Below, one piece after another: positions 9,380 to 22,053 of a stretch of 24,409 bases of DNA. A model generated the notes under the pieces. The model was given only the letters and a program-made list of their open reading frames with translations, was not told the DNA's origin and did not search any database. Origin of the DNA: an uncultured Elusimicrobia bacterium (lineage in GTDB: Bacteria; Elusimicrobiota; Elusimicrobia; 2-02-FULL-39-32); NCBI GenBank assembly GCA_964359975.1, contig CAYHWZ010000001.1:1-24409 (forward strand). The letters are read 5' to 3'. Numbering within the stretch: the stretch's first letter is position 1; the number at the start of each line of letters is the position of its first letter. Both the position numbers and the translations under genes were made by a program.

Positions 9380-11091
9380 TTTTTGAGAAATGTCACCATC
9401 AGGCCTGCGGCCTCCTGCACCGAAACCGCTTTTCCCGGAATCTCAGGTCCCGGCATGTGCGCGCCGATATAAACGTACCGGTCCAGCGCGCGGACATGTT
9501 CCGTATACGTCGGGTACCGGTCCGGTCCGCTCGACGGTGCGATTATCACCCGTTCGTCCGTCAAGAGAGTCACATAATATGCGGTCCAGTAGTCGGCATA
9601 TCCGCCGTCCGCGCTGTTTTCCAGCAGGATTTTGGCGGTCTGTTCATAAGGATTCAACAATTCGCGCGTCTGCCATTTCCGCACATTGGCCGTGACCTGG
9701 GCCGTCAGGAGCAAAAGCAAAAGCATGATGCCCGCAATTTTGTTCCGCACAAAAATATCTTTTAAAATCTAGACGATGCCGAGCGGCAGACAGAAATACA
9801 GCGGCACCATGTACCGCAGAGACGAAACGTCCGCCAGCTGGTTGCAGAACGTGCCGAGCGCAATCGTGCAAACCGCCAGACTCAGCAGCGTAAATTCCGC
9901 AGGCAGAGGTTTGTCCTGCAAAATGCGTTCCCGGACAGCGCGGAACCATTTCCAAAATAGAACTGCAAATCCCGCGCTTACTGCCAAAGTTCCGGTGATA
10001 CCCAAAGATTTTACGTCAGTTTCACCCGCCATCCTGGGAATCATTTCAGTCACAGTCATCCTGAAATTCTGCAGAAACACCGGCAGAGATACGAATCCTC
10101 CGGGCGAAGCAGGCGGACGTCCGATAAAATATCCGATTATCGCTGGCAAATACCCGATGAGAAATCCCTGCGCCGCATGTTTGACCGGAGGCATGCCCCA
10201 CAGCGCAAAAATTTGCTGACGGATAAACTTGTGACCCGCGATTACAAAAACCGCGCCGCCCATCAGCAGACTGGATTTGAATATCGGCCAGAAATAAAGT
10301 TTGATTGTCTTGCTGTGCACGGTAAAAATCCAGTCGCCATACAGCCAGAGTACCAGCGCCACTGCAAGATTAGCGCAGTTGTACAGGTTGACCGCCGCGA
10401 GCAGGTACCGGAGCGGAACCGGTACCGGAGCATTTTGCAGGAGCACGAACTCGCGCCATATTTTTTCACGCGAAAATTGTCTCAGCCGGTTCTTAATATC
10501 AGTCCACTGTTCCGGACCTGTCCGTGCGATGAAAAAATGCAAGGCAATGGCCGCCCAAAACAGCGCAATCAGACGGAAATAGTACCAGGAAAAACCCGCC
10601 ACCAGTCCGAATGCGAAAAGCAGTCCGCGATTGCGCGCGCCGTGGGAAATACGCTTCGCCAGCAAAAAGTGCGCCAACCCCAGATTCATTACCAGTATAT
10701 AGTTGTAAGTGGAAAAAGTGATGGACTGGAACGCGGGCGGCGCAAGCGCGAGAATCAGCGTGGAAACCGCCGCAGTCTTTTCATCCGTTATCGCCCGCAG
10801 ATAAAAAAAGTATCCGGTAATCAGTGTAAGCGAAAAAAACAGCGGCAGACAATGCATGACGCACGGAGTCGCGCCCCAAATGCGGAACAGCGGCATCAGC
10901 AATAGCGGGTCGAGCGAACCATAGTACCCTTCGCCCCAATAATAAGGAGCAAATTCTCCGCGCAAAAAATGTTTTGCCATCAGCCCGAGAATCGCCGTAT
11001 CCGAACTGAAAAAAATGTCCCAATAAACCACATACGGGACCCTGATTAAAAACCCCGCGGTCAAAAGCGTGCCCAGCAATAGCGCAGTCAT
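9376..11091 (-). pseudogene. GT-C-like membrane glycosyltransferase interrupted by an in-frame TAG at 9769-9771
   Basis: ORFs 9769..11091 (FSSDTAILGLMAKH, YYWGEGYYGSLDP) and 9376..9750 (GYADYWTAYY...DRYPTY) share a frame and are joined by ATT TTA AAA GAT ATT TTT: ...LPLGIV*ILKDIFVRNKIAGIMLLLL...; 571 aa if read through. Confidence 0.7.
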
Positions 11092-11150: not shown

Positions 11151-11459
11151 TTACGCGGCGCGGGAATGCAGTACATGCACCTCGCGTTTAAGACGGTCGG
11201 CCAGGCGCGCTTCTTCCCGCTCCAAATCAAAGTGCGACTGCAAATTAAGCCAAAACTGCGGCGAATTGCGGAAATAGCACCCCAAACGCAAAGCAGTGTC
11301 CGCGGAAATGGCTCTTTGACCGTGCACAATCTCGTTTATCCTGCGCGGAGGCACGCTGATATCTTTGGCCAGTCTGTATTGGCTGATTTCAAGCGGTTTC
11401 AGGAAATCATCCATCAGTATTTCGCCCGGGTGAACAGGCGCCATCTTCTTTGTTCTCAT
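11151..11459 (-). CDS. higA: HigA-family HTH antitoxin
   Basis: PVHPGEIL.DDFLKPLEISQYRLAKDISVPPRRINEIVHGQRAISADTALRL...FWLNLQ; ATG at 11459 with RBS AGGAGA. Confidence 0.93.
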   Translation of the reverse strand: MRTKKMAPVHPGEILMDDFLKPLEISQYRLAKDISVPPRRINEIVHGQRAISADTALRLGCYFRNSPQFWLNLQSHFDLEREEARLADRLKREVHVLHSRAA

Positions 11460-14342: not shown

Positions 14343-15812
14343 ATGTCATACGACCTTATTGTAAAAAACGGGACTATCTACACGGCGAGTGAAACTTTTA
14401 CCGGCAATATAGCGGTGAAAGGCGGCAAAATTGCGGCGCTCGGTATGGACATTCCCGCCGACGGTGCCCGCGTCATTGACGCCAAAGGGCTCCAGATTAT
14501 TCCGGGCAGTATTGACGTGCATGTGCATTGCCAGCTCCCGTTCTGCGGCACTGTTTCGTCGGACGATTTTTATACCGGGACCAAGGCCGCGGCTTGCGGC
14601 GGCGTGACCACCATCATGGACTTTGCAGGTCAAGGACCGCACGACAATCTCATGGCCGGCGTCGAAGCCCGCATTGCCGAAGCTGAACCCAAAGTCGTCA
14701 TTGACTATTCGCTCCATACTATGGTCACCGGATTCAAAAAAATCAAAGACCCGGTCAAAGAGTTCCGGCGTATGCTTGATTTCGGCGTGGCCAGCCACAA
14801 AATGTTCATGATCTACGAACGCGAAGGATGGCAGGCCATGGACGACGATATCTTCGGAGCCATGCTCGCGGCGCAGGAAACCGGCGCCACTATCTGCATG
14901 CACGCGGAATCGGAAAAGGTGATGAACTTTCTCGTCGGATACTATCTTGCGCGCAAGGATAAAGTCGGCGCCTACGGGCATGTGCTCTCGCGGCCCAACT
15001 TTATCGAGGAAGAAGCTATCCAGCGCGCTATCAAGTGGGCCGAAGCCACCGGCGCGCATCTTTATGTGGTGCATATGTCCACTGCAGGCGGAGCACAGCT
15101 TTTCAAAGATGCGCAGGCCAAAGGTCTGAACGTCCATGTGGAAACCTGCCCGCAGTATCTTGTGATGAACGACGATGTTTTCAAAGATAAAAAGAGCGGT
15201 CACTGGTTCGCCACTTGTCCGCAGATTAAAAAGAAAGCGGATAACGACCGGCTCTGGCAGGGTCTCATCGACGGTGAAGTGGCCGTGGTGTCCACGGACA
15301 CCTGCACATTCACCATCAAACAGAAAGCCATGTGGAATGGCGATTTCACCCGTATCCCGTTCGGTATGCCCGGCGTGGAGACGCTCATGCCGTCCATCTA
15401 CACGTTCGGATACAAGCAGAACAAATTCTCGCTCAATCACATGGTCTCGATTCTTTCAACGAATCCGGCCAAACTCATGGGCATGTACCCGAAAAAGGGA
15501 ACCATTGCCGTGGGGTCCGACGCGGACTTTGCCGTTATTGACCCGAACGCGAGCCGCAAAATCGATTACAAAGAGCTCGCGTCCAACTGCGACTGGTCGC
15601 CGTTCCAGGGATGGAAAATGTTCGGGTTCCCCAAATATACCGTGAGCCGCGGCGAAGTGCTCGTGTCCAACGGCAAGTTCGACGAAAAAGTCGGACGCAA
15701 AGGGCGCGGTCAATTCGTCAAGCGCAAACCCTACGGATGGCGCGACCTTGCCCGCCCCTGGTACGTGCCCGAACACAAGTCTCAGGTCGTGGACAAGGTT
15801 TTGGTAAAGTGA
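14343..15812 (+). CDS. hydA: Dihydropyrimidinase / D-hydantoinase
   Basis: PGSIDVHVH, GTKAAACGGVTTIMDF, HKMFM (carbamylated Lys), HAES, SRPNFIEEEA, VVHMS, ETCPQYL, STD, GMPGVET, NPAKLMG.YPKKGTIAVGSDAD; RBS GAGGAG. Confidence 0.9.
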   Translation: MSYDLIVKNGTIYTASETFTGNIAVKGGKIAALGMDIPADGARVIDAKGLQIIPGSIDVHVHCQLPFCGTVSSDDFYTGTKAAACGGVTTIMDFAGQGPHDNLMAGVEARIAEAEPKVVIDYSLHTMVTGFKKIKDPVKEFRRMLDFGVASHKMFMIYEREGWQAMDDDIFGAMLAAQETGATICMHAESEKVMNFLVGYYLARKDKVGAYGHVLSRPNFIEEEAIQRAIKWAEATGAHLYVVHMSTAGGAQLFKDAQAKGLNVHVETCPQYLVMNDDVFKDKKSGHWFATCPQIKKKADNDRLWQGLIDGEVAVVSTDTCTFTIKQKAMWNGDFTRIPFGMPGVETLMPSIYTFGYKQNKFSLNHMVSILSTNPAKLMGMYPKKGTIAVGSDADFAVIDPNASRKIDYKELASNCDWSPFQGWKMFGFPKYTVSRGEVLVSNGKFDEKVGRKGRGQFVKRKPYGWRDLARPWYVPEHKSQVVDKVLVK

Positions 15813-18187: not shown

Positions 18188-18210
18188 CCCTCTCCTCATC
18201 GAGGAGAGGG
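18188..18210. repeat. Short palindrome after the aminotransferase (terminator-like or dispersed repeat)
   Basis: CCCTCTCCTC-ATC-GAGGAGAGGG, perfect 10-bp stem, no U-tract. Confidence 0.75.
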
Positions 18211-18300
18211 ATAGGGTGATGAGTTTATTCACATAGCATTGGACAAGAAATCTGAATTCGTTCTCCATGTTGTCAAAGTGCATGCCCTATTCTAAGAGAT

Positions 18301-18969
18301 ATGGATTTAACTAACTTCTACTATTTTTATTCAACCATTGCTCAAGTATTCGCGGCCATATTGGGAGTCATTGGCTTATTTGCGGTTTTTCTCATCGAAA
18401 ATATAAGAAGCAGGATTAACACAGACACAGATAAACTGTGGTACATTTTGGGGGATTTTGGAATATTTCCCGATGAAATGCCAAAATATAGGTTTGATGA
18501 GAAGCGGAAAGCGGAAGCCCGAAAGCTATTTCCTTACACTACTGAGTCGCTTTTAGCAAAACGAGCGGAATTAGAAAGAATGATTGATAACTGTCAAAAA
18601 GATATTGAAAAGCAGGAAATGGAATTACGACAAAAACAAGAACAAAACCAAAACTTTAATATGCAGAGCGGGACTATAAATATAGATGATGCAAAAAAGA
18701 CGAAATTTGAACGCGAATCGTTGCTACAGCAAATATGTGTTCTTGAATCTTTGATAGAGAAGGAGAGGACGATAGTAGATAGATTAGGAACGCCAACATA
18801 TTTTGTGGGCTTAATAATTGTACTCGCGCTTTGCGGGATTTTTGTCCTGCCTTGGATGCAAATATTCCCAGCCGTACTTTGGTGGTTAGCGGGGACGGTG
18901 CATTGTCTGTCAGTTATTGCTATTTTTGTTGTTATATACAAGGTGATTAGTTGGGTAAGAATGAAATAG
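18301..18969 (+). CDS. Hypothetical membrane protein (N-terminal TM, coiled coil, two C-terminal TMs)
   Basis: AT-rich 222-aa ORF; hydrophobic segments at both ends around an E/K/Q-rich heptad region. Confidence 0.75.
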   Translation: MDLTNFYYFYSTIAQVFAAILGVIGLFAVFLIENIRSRINTDTDKLWYILGDFGIFPDEMPKYRFDEKRKAEARKLFPYTTESLLAKRAELERMIDNCQKDIEKQEMELRQKQEQNQNFNMQSGTINIDDAKKTKFERESLLQQICVLESLIEKERTIVDRLGTPTYFVGLIIVLALCGIFVLPWMQIFPAVLWWLAGTVHCLSVIAIFVVIYKVISWVRMK

Positions 18970-19066
18970 TTCCAATAGTTTACAGGACCTTCATAACTAT
19001 TGGGCGGTGAAATCGGCATGGAAAAGAAGAGGAAAATATTGAAGGTGCGGCGTTCTGCGCCGAAGT

Positions 19067-19471
19067 TTAAAAGGGTGTGGTATGGAACCCGGCAGATTTA
19101 AAATGTCGGTCGAAGGTGAAAACTCTCTTTATTTTGTGTCTGTGCATCAGGACAAAGGAAATACAATCTGTAAAGCTGATTTTTTGATCCGCATACTTTT
19201 TGAATAGGTTCACTGCCTCTAACTCTTCCTTCTGGTCCGGTCTCAATATTTCCATTTCTTGCGAGCAGAGAATGTTTCTGGCGCGGTCTGCGGCGAACGC
19301 ATAACCGGTTCTCCTTGCCAGCAGGGTAAAGAATTCGTCCAAGACAAAATTGCTCGTGATGCATTGTTCCCTGCTCTTGTAAAACTTGTCCCATAAATCC
19401 GACGCAGTTTTGTGATACTGGTCGTGATCAATGTACCGGGCAAGAAATGGTCCGGTATCAATAAAAATCAT
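19067..19471 (-). CDS. vapC: PIN-domain (VapC-type) toxin
   Basis: MIFIDTG, TSNFVLDEF, SFTDCISF, VFTFDRHF (PIN acidic residues); start at 19471, ATGA overlap with the antitoxin stop. Confidence 0.9.
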   Translation of the reverse strand: MIFIDTGPFLARYIDHDQYHKTASDLWDKFYKSREQCITSNFVLDEFFTLLARRTGYAFAADRARNILCSQEMEILRPDQKEELEAVNLFKKYADQKISFTDCISFVLMHRHKIKRVFTFDRHFKSAGFHTTPF

Positions 19472-19710
19472 CCGGCATCCCCGTAAAGATATTCGTCGTG
19501 CTTTTTTGACAAGTCTCGCGGGGCAGGTCCCTTGAAAACCACGGTGTCCGCCCAAAATGAGTCGGATTTTGATGATTTGGAAGGAATGTCCTTGAGACCT
19601 CTGTCCAGCGATTCCCGAATCAGCTGTCCGAGGGACTGGCTGTGAGCGTGAGCATGTTGCAGCGCCCTCATTTTAAGTTCGTCCGGCAGCATTATAGTTG
19701 TTCTAATCAT
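19468..19710 (-). CDS. CopG/RHH-type antitoxin (VapB-type)
   Basis: MIRTTIMLPDELK...SLGQLIRESLD...DLSKKHDEYLYG; RBS GGAGG; coupled to the PIN gene. Confidence 0.85.
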   Translation of the reverse strand: MIRTTIMLPDELKMRALQHAHAHSQSLGQLIRESLDRGLKDIPSKSSKSDSFWADTVVFKGPAPRDLSKKHDEYLYGDAG

Positions 19711-19732
19711 GAGTAAGACCTCCGATACCACC

Positions 19733-19799
19733 ATAATGACATATGCATAACCTAGCGTCAAGCCCCAGACTTGACATTATGTCCCAATAAGTGTAGAAT
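19733..19799. promoter_or_regulatory. Back-to-back divergent sigma70-type promoters (vapBC leftward, SLT operon rightward)
   Basis: Minus: TTGACG (19756-19761)-17-CATTAT (19733-19738). Plus: TTGACA (19771-19776)-17-TAGAAT (19794-19799). Confidence 0.7.
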
Positions 19800-19839
19800 T
19801 TACCCGAATTAAATGTTCCGTGCCCTGAACAGGCCGGAA

Positions 19840-19930
19840 CACTGACAAAGGTATCCCTCGAGAGATCGGGGCGCACACGCAAAACTTAGGGTCCGCCGGG
19901 GAAGGCAGGACAGCCGGGTTGCCAGAGAAT
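19840..19930 (+). ncRNA. c-di-GMP-I (GEMM-I)-like riboswitch aptamer, atypical 5' half
   Basis: GCAAAAC-TTAGG-GTCC-GCC(GGGGAA)GGC-A-GGAC-AGCC-GGGT-TGCC matches the GEMM-I P3/junction pattern; P2 has a GNRA loop (TC-GAGA-GA); lies in a ~180-nt leader between promoter and ATG. Confidence 0.7.
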
Positions 19931-19955
19931 CACATTATGGCGGCCCGGATTTTTT
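19914..19955 (+). terminator. Intrinsic terminator overlapping the aptamer 3' end (expression platform)
   Basis: CCGGGTTGCCA (19914-19924) pairs with TGGCGGCCCGG (19938-19948), 11 bp with two G-U, followed by ATTTTTT. Confidence 0.75.
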
Positions 19956-19985
19956 ATGTCCCCGCCCAAATAAAAGGAGCCCGAA

Positions 19986-20699
19986 ATGACTGCACGAAAG
20001 AAATTGACCGAAGTGGATAGAATGCTGAAACAGCAAACCCCTCACAAAATGAAAGCCCTTGAGAACGCATCCAGGCATTTTGATAAGTTTGATAAAATAA
20101 CCGTAAATACACTTGAGGCCATTTACGGACAGGAAAGCAGTTTCGGTACGAATCGTGGAGTACGAGGAATAGTCGGAGCCGCAGGTGACTTTCAATTGGA
20201 GAGGAAAACTGCCATCCGGTATGGCCTGATTGTCACCCCCAAAAATGACCAGCGTTTTGACGTGGACAACGCATCAGACGCATCTGCCAGATATTTGAAA
20301 GATCTGGACAGATATTTCTCGAAAGCGACCCGTCTTATAGGACAGATTCGCACTGTTCCAATAGATGATTCGGACGAAAGATTGAAGTTCGTAATAGCAT
20401 CATTCAATGCCGGAGAGGGGAGAATTGCGCGCGCACAGGACGTAGCGAAAAAGATGGGCAAGAATCCAGAAGTGTGGGATGATGTCAGAAAATATCTTTC
20501 AAAAGCGGGTGCAACCGCAGAAAAAGTCAAGGAAATTAAGGACTATGTGGAAAAGGTGCAGCAATATGAGAAGGAATTTGCCTTGAAGTCGAAAGCAGAC
20601 AAAAGTGTCAAACATAAAGATCCAATAAAACTTAAGCAGAGTTCGGAAATCGGAGAGTGGATTACCAAGGATGAACGGCCTGTATTCATAGGGAGATAA
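19986..20699 (+). CDS. Lytic transglycosylase (SLT domain, MltF-like motifs), no signal peptide
   Basis: QESSF (catalytic Glu50), AAGDFQL, ASFNAGEG, KDYVEKV; charged N-terminus; RBS AAGGAG. Confidence 0.85.
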   Translation: MTARKKLTEVDRMLKQQTPHKMKALENASRHFDKFDKITVNTLEAIYGQESSFGTNRGVRGIVGAAGDFQLERKTAIRYGLIVTPKNDQRFDVDNASDASARYLKDLDRYFSKATRLIGQIRTVPIDDSDERLKFVIASFNAGEGRIARAQDVAKKMGKNPEVWDDVRKYLSKAGATAEKVKEIKDYVEKVQQYEKEFALKSKADKSVKHKDPIKLKQSSEIGEWITKDERPVFIGR

Positions 20700-20703
20700 T
20701 CCA

Positions 20704-22053
20704 ATGAAGATGCTTATTCTCCACTTGGTGACCGTGCTTTTTGTCATTACGGGATATCCCGGCGCCGGTCAAGAACCGGAATCAGATTCCTGCACACAGC
20801 AGTATTTCAAACTGGATGCAGAATATTTGGGATGCTTGAAATCGGATCCGATTGCAGGATTTATCCGACAAAGTTTTGACGACTTCTTGAAGGGAAAAAA
20901 ATGCGAAAACTGTTCCACGCTGTGGGATCGCGCTGAAAAGTTCCGCTCCATTCTCTCCAACAAAATCATGCTGCTGGAGGTCTGGGAAGGTCATTTCGGC
21001 GGGTGGTTTGTGATGATTGCCGTGGACGCTCCGAAAATGCGCTTTCTGGAACTGTGGGTTTATGAGATTGATGAAAAAGAATACCAAATCAGGCACCTGG
21101 AAGAAATGACCCTGAAACAGGAGGAGGTATTTCAGCTTCAGAAGTTGAGAGAGGAACCGTACCCGCGGTTCTGGTTGAAAAGCGGGGCAAAACGCGCGTC
21201 AATCGACCCGCAGATTAATGACGCCGGAAACCCGGACGATTTTCCAGTACATTCGGAATCTGACGGATACAGGTTCCGGGTGGATACGGCATCGTCCGCA
21301 TCGGCTGCGTTTTTCAAATCTCTGGACGATATTTTCAGCAAAGAAACAGATCTCGGTATCAAATTCAGATCCTATCCGGTACTGGACCAGGAGGAACGGA
21401 TAAAGTTCAGTTTGGGGGCATTTAACGCGGGCGAAGCCAGAATCGCAAGCGCTCAACTGCGGACCTTAAAACTGAACGAAGACCCGTCCGTCTGGGAAGA
21501 AGTCAAGGAGCGTCTGACTTTTTCCGGTGCAACGCCGGGCAGATCATTCCAAACCAGGAGCTTTGTAGACCGTATGTACCGACAGAGCAAAAGCCGCGCT
21601 GATTCCGCAGGTACACCCAAGGATCCGTCAGACGAGTCGGGGAGCTTCCGCCTGAATGCATCCTGTATGAACATGGATTTCAAACTGGATCAGGACTACC
21701 TGGCTTGTATGAGAGCGGATCCGATTGCAGATTTCTTGCGACGGAGTTTCAACGAATACTTGAAGTGCAGCCCGAGCCAGGAGTGCGCGCCTTTGCTCAA
21801 ATACGCGGACAAGTACCGGATACTGCTGTCGGGAAAGTTCATGATCCTTGAAATCAGAGAAAGAGACGAAGACGGGTTCACAGCGGTGATCGTGTTTCCT
21901 GATCCTGAAGTGCGGTTCTTAAGACTATGGGTTTATAATCTGGATGAGAACGAGTACGAGCTCCGTCATATCGAAGAGTTGTTTGCCATTCCCGGACATC
22001 GTGCGAATCTCAAACGCCTGACAAAGAATAAATTTAAGCAGTTTCTCTTGTGA
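20704..22053 (+). CDS. Secreted protein with two copies of an unknown domain flanking a truncated, non-catalytic SLT fragment
   Basis: Hydrophobic signal (aa 1-22); aa 29-134 vs 320-425 are 49/106 identical, ungapped; aa 190-291 vs SLT aa 90-191 are 44/102 identical, ungapped. Confidence 0.85.
   Translation: MKMLILHLVTVLFVITGYPGAGQEPESDSCTQQYFKLDAEYLGCLKSDPIAGFIRQSFDDFLKGKKCENCSTLWDRAEKFRSILSNKIMLLEVWEGHFGGWFVMIAVDAPKMRFLELWVYEIDEKEYQIRHLEEMTLKQEEVFQLQKLREEPYPRFWLKSGAKRASIDPQINDAGNPDDFPVHSESDGYRFRVDTASSASAAFFKSLDDIFSKETDLGIKFRSYPVLDQEERIKFSLGAFNAGEARIASAQLRTLKLNEDPSVWEEVKERLTFSGATPGRSFQTRSFVDRMYRQSKSRADSAGTPKDPSDESGSFRLNASCMNMDFKLDQDYLACMRADPIADFLRRSFNEYLKCSPSQECAPLLKYADKYRILLSGKFMILEIRERDEDGFTAVIVFPDPEVRFLRLWVYNLDENEYELRHIEELFAIPGHRANLKRLTKNKFKQFLL

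Follow-up and report, generated by a model that had tools for sequence, protein, structure and literature searches.

We report that the leader of a two-gene operon in an uncultured Elusimicrobia bacterium probably carries a divergent but intact GEMM-I (c-di-GMP-I) riboswitch which works as a transcriptional ON switch. The stretch of DNA that was analyzed, 24,409 nucleotides (nt) in total and called the window hereafter, belongs to a metagenome-assembled genome (MAG) of 2.59 Mb in 467 contigs that is 87% complete. Four things are established by the analysis: the match of sequence and structure to the class, the overlap of the aptamer with the terminator, the folding energetics, and the paralogy with two other leaders of the same genome. 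The identity of the ligand, the site of termination and the direction of regulation are predictions. A promoter, a 5' hairpin, a GEMM-I-like aptamer and a strong terminator are all found exactly where the initial annotation, made by reading the sequence, had placed them (Table 1), and its assignment of the aptamer to a variant GEMM-I in a 5' leader is supported by computation, i.e., by a lineage-specific covariance model and by a secondary structure in which nearly all pairs are standard.

A GEMM-I aptamer just below the Rfam threshold

The Rfam scan of the window at gathering thresholds gave zero matches. The default scan was silent because the score of RF01051 on the aptamer, 32.9 bits (E 1.2e-4 per genome in a whole-genome search), is below the gathering cut-off of 35, which is an operational criterion rather than a structural one; the shortfall of about 2 bits is consistent with a 4-nt insertion and loop changes in the 5' half of the aptamer. 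A permissive sub-threshold scan ranked the c-di-GMP-I-GGC variant (RF03167) as the top Rfam family, with 32.3 bits where 59 are required, and this match reflects general similarity within the clan. We trained a covariance model (R1) on 14 canonical GEMM-I aptamers taken from the same MAG and its family, with the window element excluded. When every position of the window was scored with R1, the aptamer reached 45.4 bits and the next best position in the 24 kb 13.2 bits; please note that the E-values of this in-house model are rough, and we therefore relied on bit scores. The covariance-model match proposed as a check in the initial annotation was thus obtained from the two Rfam families below their gathering cut-offs only, and from the left-out lineage model with a clear score. 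Three other weak model matches, at 9620-9687 (-), 11263-11366 (+) and 15662-15755 (+), were discarded as noise: they score 18 bits or less, lack P1b and, by eye, seemingly lie inside coding sequence.

GEMM-I is abundant in this lineage. The MAG itself holds six RF01051 matches above the cut-off, and at E <= 1e-3 the family was found in 44 of 61 related genomes, including 11/11 of the same bacterial family, and in none of the 14 well-known genomes that served as controls. Forty-seven lineage aptamers were aligned, in an alignment that was fitted to the model, and there the modelled structure is 94.9% paired with compensatory changes at 19 of the 21 pairs. The window stretch is also present in four groundwater DNA sequencing runs, whose low-depth contigs are identical to it where they cover the aptamer, with zero variants; no RNA run is listed as containing it.

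Table 1. Features of the riboswitch leader and of the operon downstream (window coordinates).
Feature	Position	Strand	Remarks
Promoter, sigma-70-type	19771..19799	+	-35 TTGACA 19771-19776, 17-nt spacer, -10 TAGAAT 19794-19799
5' hairpin	19814..19841	+	Directly abuts aptamer P1; present in MFE and centroid folds
GEMM-I (c-di-GMP-I) aptamer, predicted	19840..19927	+	Rfam sub-threshold; lineage model 45.4 bits
P1	19842-19844 with 19923-19925, plus 19840 with 19927	+	Aptamer model
Closing pairs	G19851-C19880, U19852-G19879	+	R1 alignment; C21 comparison agrees
Internal loop	AUC 19853-19855 opposite CGCACAC 19872-19878	+	Holds the 4-nt insertion
P1b	19856-19861 with 19866-19871	+	R1 alignment, C21 comparison
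GAGA tetraloop (GNRA type)	19862-19865	+	Caps P1b
Conserved core CACGCAAAA	19876-19884	+	The GACGCAAAG core of GEMM-I
P2	19883-19897 with 19904-19920	+	
J2/1	G19921 and C19922	+	C19922 is the C92 equivalent
Intrinsic terminator	19914..19957	+	Stem 19914-19924 with 19938-19948, U-tract 19950-19955
RBS AGGAG and gene 1 ATG	19975..19988	+	AGGAG 19975-19979, ATG 19986-19988, read from sequence
Gene 1	19986..20699	+	237-aa SLT-domain lytic transglycosylase; PF01464 E 4.6e-11
Gene 2	20704..22053	+	449 aa, without Pfam family

Aptamer anatomy and the deviant 5' half

In the R1 alignment 20 of the 21 modelled pairs are standard, the sole exception being A19888 with G19916 in P2; by our own reading, a one-nt shift of the conserved bulged A would resolve this mismatch. 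In the type 1 architecture of GEMM-I, the GNRA tetraloop of P1b docks into a receptor in P2; here the GAGA loop is a candidate for such docking, and the bulged-A region of P2 is present, either shifted or mismatched at A19888. P1 is short, with three contiguous pairs and one more past an A-A mismatch.

The 5' half deviates from the usual GEMM-I in three ways: a C-to-U change that makes one closing pair U-G, an internal loop strand AUC instead of AAA, and four nucleotides inserted into the 3' strand of the P1b internal loop, a strand that is 7 nt long here versus 3 nt in 45 of the 47 lineage aptamers. The initial annotation had described a deviant 5' half with about six extra nucleotides (CACACG); the deviation is real, while the extra nucleotides are better described as an insertion of four, either ACAC or CGCA. 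The Rfam alignment puts this insertion after the closing pairs and not before them, and position 47 (Vibrio cholerae Vc2 numbering) is still A. The AUC strand and the insertion adjoin the two base pairs which form the floor of the ligand pocket.

Precedents exist for these deviations. The U-G closing pair and the GGUAxC arrangement occur in an above-threshold paralog of the same genome, C137 (GGUAAC...CGC...GC); the same 7-nt 3' internal loop is present in L059, which scores 44.8 bits with RF01051 and is above threshold; four extra nucleotides sit at the same spot in L060 (RF01051 44.3 bits); and CAC for GAC is found in L043. Judged by sequence comparison, the unusual 5' half falls inside the variation of the 47 GEMM-I aptamers from the same bacterial family. 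As an observation in its own right, L059:301-401 (G006:C41) and L060:1501-1602 (- strand; G006:C32) are above-threshold paralogs within one family relative, with UGCG and UGAG as their extra nucleotides, and a related aptamer, L070 (G009), has the usual 3-nt loop.

Leader layout and the proposed switch

The cis-regulatory layout is complete, i.e., a promoter lies upstream, a terminator overlaps the aptamer, and a ribosome-binding site (RBS) and ATG follow downstream. The promoter matches 11 of 12 consensus positions, and from the usual promoter spacing we infer a transcription start at about 19806. The 5' hairpin has 7 bp plus three inner base pairs. A repeat search of the genome found it in a single copy, which rules out a genome-wide repeat; it may stabilize the 5' end, stack on the short P1, or be what is left of an older upstream aptamer. 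The RBS and the ATG of gene 1 come after the terminator, whose stem leaves both free.

The terminator stem consists of 11 bp (-21.2 kcal/mol) with a 13-nt loop and is followed by A and six U; a simple terminator scan missed it because only loops of 3-8 nt were allowed. The left arm of the stem, 19914-19924, coincides with the aptamer 3' strand: it takes in the 3' strand of P2, the J2/1 junction with the C92 equivalent, and two P1 3'-strand nucleotides. The aptamer and terminator folds therefore cannot form together; this shared strand bears out the mutually exclusive folds described in the initial annotation. The minimum free energy (MFE) fold of the full leader picks the terminator. With ligand-free nearest-neighbor energies, the terminator-containing folds are at -29 to -42 kcal/mol versus -16 to -19 kcal/mol for the aptamer fold, and such a far more stable terminator should make the default state OFF and ligand binding the event which switches it ON. 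The ligand-dependent ON logic put forward earlier is thus supported by computation, namely by the shared strand and the more stable terminator fold.

In the mechanism that we propose, the RNA would start at about 19806 from the near-consensus promoter. In the ligand-free RNA, 19914-19924 would pair with 19938-19948, the terminator would form, and transcripts would end at about 19955. When c-di-GMP, the putative ligand, occupies the pocket made of G19850, A19881 and C19922, it would hold P1 and P2 together and block the terminator, and RNA polymerase would continue into the two-gene SLT operon.

Paralogous leaders and the case for a decayed copy

Two leaders of the same genome, G000:C21:6953-7063 (L010) and G000:C137:4180-4290 (L014), both with above-threshold GEMM-I aptamers, are paralogous to the window leader. 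They share with it the aptamer 3' half, the terminator arms, the U-tract and a downstream GUCC, and in C21 the likeness reaches as far as the RBS; the similarity of the expression platform among these leaders is above that of all 2000 shuffles. C137 has in addition the GGUAxC...CGC...GC arrangement with the U-G closing pair. There are also differences. Both paralogs are without the 4-nt insertion, C21 has A at position 20 where the window element has G, C137 has a purine aptamer upstream in place of the simple hairpin, and both precede small secreted proteins (signal peptides read from sequence) instead of SLT genes. The window leader is probably a duplicate of these native leaders.

A leader search at the DNA level in 60 relatives returned an own-genome paralog and one 26-nt match only, with no orthologous leader, and the covariation described above is therefore that of the lineage. 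The changes between the paralogs are compensatory at several places: a terminator pair that is G-C in the window element is A-U in C137, and two P1b pairs differ from those in C21 and yet stay paired (U-A to C-G; G-C to U-G). By sequence comparison, these are the only changes that speak for selection on the structure of the window copy, and they suggest that it has been maintained.

This bears on one of the rival explanations, that the aptamer is a decaying copy which does not bind, the leader being a constitutive terminator or one modulated by a protein or by kinetics, with the acquired lytic gene pair mostly silent. The sub-threshold RF01051 score, the insertion beside the pocket together with one P2 mismatch and a short P1, the terminator fold, whose stability far exceeds that of the aptamer fold, the location of the operon in a low-GC island adjoining a PIN toxin-antitoxin-like pair, and the lack of orthologous leaders that would display purifying selection on this copy are all compatible with decay. 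However, the pocket nucleotides, the GNRA loop, the CACGCAAAA core and the 20 standard pairs are intact, P1b pairing was kept through the two changed pairs relative to C21, and the energetic bias to the terminator is shared by C21 and C137, whose MFE folds also choose it, as is expected for any ON switch. We consider decay unlikely on this evidence, and an intact riboswitch is the reading that we carry forward.

The ligand pocket

The pocket trio of the window element is G19850, A19881 and C19922, the same under the Rfam and R1 alignments, corresponding to G20, A47 and C92 of Vc2. The Vc2 positions 20, 47 and 92 were mapped onto the Rfam consensus lines, a mapping that fits the name of the GGC variant and the RF03167 consensus. 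In the Vc2 structure, the base of A47 stacks between both ligand bases. [quoted passage not shown] With G19850, A19881 and C19922 the element is therefore neither of the GGC variant nor of the cGAMP type. In the set of 47 lineage aptamers, G occupies position 20 in 27 members, A in 16, C in three and U in one. Forty-six of the 47 have A at position 47, and 46 have C at the 92 equivalent.

The initial annotation had left room for a ligand other than c-di-GMP. We do not find this supported: the contacts are G, A and C as in the c-di-GMP type, the 5' half stays within lineage variation, and the pocket nucleotides are the canonical c-di-GMP trio. The corresponding rival explanation keeps the architecture and the ON logic and supposes that the expanded internal loop has changed or broadened the ligand, to 3',3'-cGAMP or to another cyclic or linear dinucleotide. 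Its appeal is that the 7-nt 3' loop and the AUC strand immediately adjoin the G-C and U-G pairs beneath the pocket, that small changes do shift specificity in this class, G20A giving cGAMP or dual binding (PMC6140456, PMC9481103), and that the closest paralog, C21, has A20 versus G here, so that sensing by the paralogs may have diverged. Yet the nucleotides at the three known contact positions are those of the c-di-GMP type, and at least one other natural aptamer, L059, whose loop is expanded in the same way, has retained G, A and C and scores above the Rfam cut-off. We know of no GEMM-I specificity switch that maps to the P1b internal loop, which counts against this explanation.

The enzymes that make the messenger point in the same direction. 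The genome has 14 GGDEF matches, at least 10 of them full-length, and eight intact active sites were retrieved by pattern search, in six of which the specificity residue is the canonical Asp and in two Asn. The GGDEF enzymes of the Hypr type, which make cGAMP, have Ser or Thr at this residue. None of the eight pattern-found sites is of this Ser/Thr type, which argues against a changed ligand, although absence from the organism is not implied for a genome that is 87% complete. Taken together, a ligand other than c-di-GMP seems quite improbable to us. The Asn-type domains are on C238 and C401.

A related idea is that the loop-expanded aptamers, i.e., that of the window and at least that of L059, form a small functional GEMM-I subclass with altered affinity, kinetics or specificity, which couples a cyclic-dinucleotide signal to a lytic transglycosylase without a signal peptide and its secreted partner. 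We regard this as a long shot; if it were true, it would place cell-wall cleavage, as in autolysis, the insertion of secretion machines or an effector-immunity pair, under second-messenger control. That the GEMM-I likeness arose by chance in a region that is merely promoter, hairpin and terminator, as the zero Rfam matches at gathering thresholds might suggest, is extremely improbable given the score of the independent R1 model relative to the rest of the window, the control genomes, the clear paralogy to two above-threshold GEMM-I leaders with the expression platform included, and the fitting position and orientation between promoter and RBS.

Some aptamers of the lineage differ at the pocket positions. 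The 16 A20 aptamers of the alignment (A3, n=47), e.g., L011:1501-1583, L041, L042, L048, L063 and L073, bear the signature of GEMM-Ib with cGAMP or dual specificity, and in 10 of them the internal loop is ACA/GCC and not AAA/GAC; two A20 copies, C21 and C193, are in the own genome. L077:252-365 (G031:C181), a sub-threshold GEMM-I of 33.7 bits with G at position 47 (GGCGCGAAGCC), is the only GGC-like one among the 47.

Downstream operon and genomic setting

The SLT gene expected downstream of the leader is there: gene 1 has the PF01464 domain (Table 1) and the conserved E-S motif (YGQESSFG), with E50 and S51 invariant in the alignment of homologs, and a hydrophobic signal is not evident at its N-terminus. 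The family is widespread, with more than 400 homologs at 52-63% identity, few of which have a source name; those that do are labelled as MAGs of Omnitrophica, Bdellovibrionales and Rickettsiales. In six of the seven homolog contexts looked up, a gene of about 155-180 aa comes next, and AbiE, PIN or HNH genes are common neighbors in these seven contexts.

Gene 2 is composite, in the order partner domain, SLT half-copy, partner domain. Its residues 187-309 align with part of gene 1 at 41% identity, and both of its ends, the N- and the C-terminal part, show homology to the partner gene of about 155 aa that follows SLT homologs elsewhere. Full-length relatives of gene 2 were found neither in 300 genomes of the class, nor in genome and metagenome contig collections, nor in a collection of 5.8 billion proteins; in all of these only the SLT-like segment was matched. 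The partner proteins that were aligned or examined (L027, gene 2) have a hydrophobic, signal-like N-terminus. It is conceivable, from the gene arrangement, that the signal-less SLT and its partner gene (window 19986-22053; L027-L034) are an enzyme-inhibitor or effector-immunity pair. A PADLOC run on both operon genes and their neighbors gave nothing relevant.

The GC content of 18.2-22.0 kb is 37-50% versus 55-57% in the flanking housekeeping genes. This low-GC island (18200-22050) lies between an aminotransferase and a carboxylase gene, the latter convergent and abutting the end of the operon; the best named matches of the aminotransferase are Elusimicrobiota MAGs, with identity up to 76%. 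The island also holds a 222-aa ORF without Pfam family and, beside the riboswitch operon, a divergent gene pair, antitoxin-like and PIN, at 19067-19711 (-). GEMM-I was found at none of the eight loci of SLT homologs with 60-63% identity from other organisms, even at E <= 1, and no SLT homolog is within 1.5 kb downstream of any of the 46 other lineage GEMM-I matches. The simplest reading, it seems, is that a leader of the native type came to stand before a gene module that was acquired horizontally and lies in the low-GC island. Elsewhere the two-gene SLT/partner module is spread across phyla, in neighborhoods that resemble defense islands.

Comparison with known systems and implications

With GEMM-I (RF01051), for which Vc2 is the structural reference, the window element shares the two-helix aptamer closed by P1, the GNRA loop on P1b, the ACGCAAA core, the G20/A47/C92 pocket and the position in a 5' leader. 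Unlike the reference, it has U-G for the C-G closing pair, AUC for AAA, four extra nucleotides, a shifted bulged A or else an A-G mismatch in P2, and an extra 5' hairpin at P1. The terminator-overlap ON design is common to the element and its two above-threshold paralogs. GEMM-Ib (3',3'-cGAMP, Geobacter Gs1761 type) has the same fold and ON logic, but its defining A20 is missing here (G19850). The c-di-GMP-I-GGC variant has UGCC at the 3' junction in common with the element, but its defining G47 is missing (A19881) and the score is far under the cut-off. The predicted target of the element is an SLT gene pair, an arrangement absent from the 46 other lineage copies and the eight SLT-homolog loci.

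GEMM-I is among the commonest riboswitch classes, and one further copy is therefore unsurprising. What is new is the association, i.e., the predicted control by c-di-GMP of a lytic transglycosylase gene and the partner gene next to it, which was not found in the literature searched or at the other loci examined. The locus also offers a view of recruitment, with a leader like the native leaders and genes inside a low-GC island. Since this copy is under the Rfam cut-off and was recovered by a lineage model, current counts of riboswitch regulons in phyla with sparse sampling are likely too low.

A tandem purine and GEMM-I leader in the same genome

The paralogous leader on C137 deserves a remark of its own. 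L014:1422-1612 (= G000:C137:4101-4290, +) has a purine-class aptamer (RF00167, 71.7 bits) followed directly by the GEMM-I aptamer (38.2 bits), with a single terminator after both; the purine aptamer has GACUAC in J3/1 and was read as the guanine type, and the 3' side of its P1 overlaps the P1 5' strand of GEMM-I (CUACUG). Purine riboswitches are present in two of the 61 lineage genomes, and the pairing of purine with GEMM-I is absent from the tandem combinations in Table 2 of PMC9481103.

The window leader resembles this tandem at two places. The promoter region at 19785-19809, including the -10 TAGAAT, is identical at 20 of 25 positions to L014:1435-1459, the purine-aptamer P1/J1-2 (UAUAAU) upstream of GEMM-I in C137, and 18 of 2000 shuffles were equally good. 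A GUUCC/GGAAC stem is immediately 5' of the GEMM-I P1 at both loci. These shared features could be the relic of a tandem ancestor or a coincidence. The purine riboswitch model had no match at E <= 10, and we keep the idea that the leader is a decayed tandem of purine and GEMM-I as a remark only, the 20/25 identity with its 18/2000 shuffles being weak evidence. The gene that follows the tandem in C137 encodes a secreted protein in which a bacterial Ig domain (Big_7) is matched weakly, under the Pfam cut-off.
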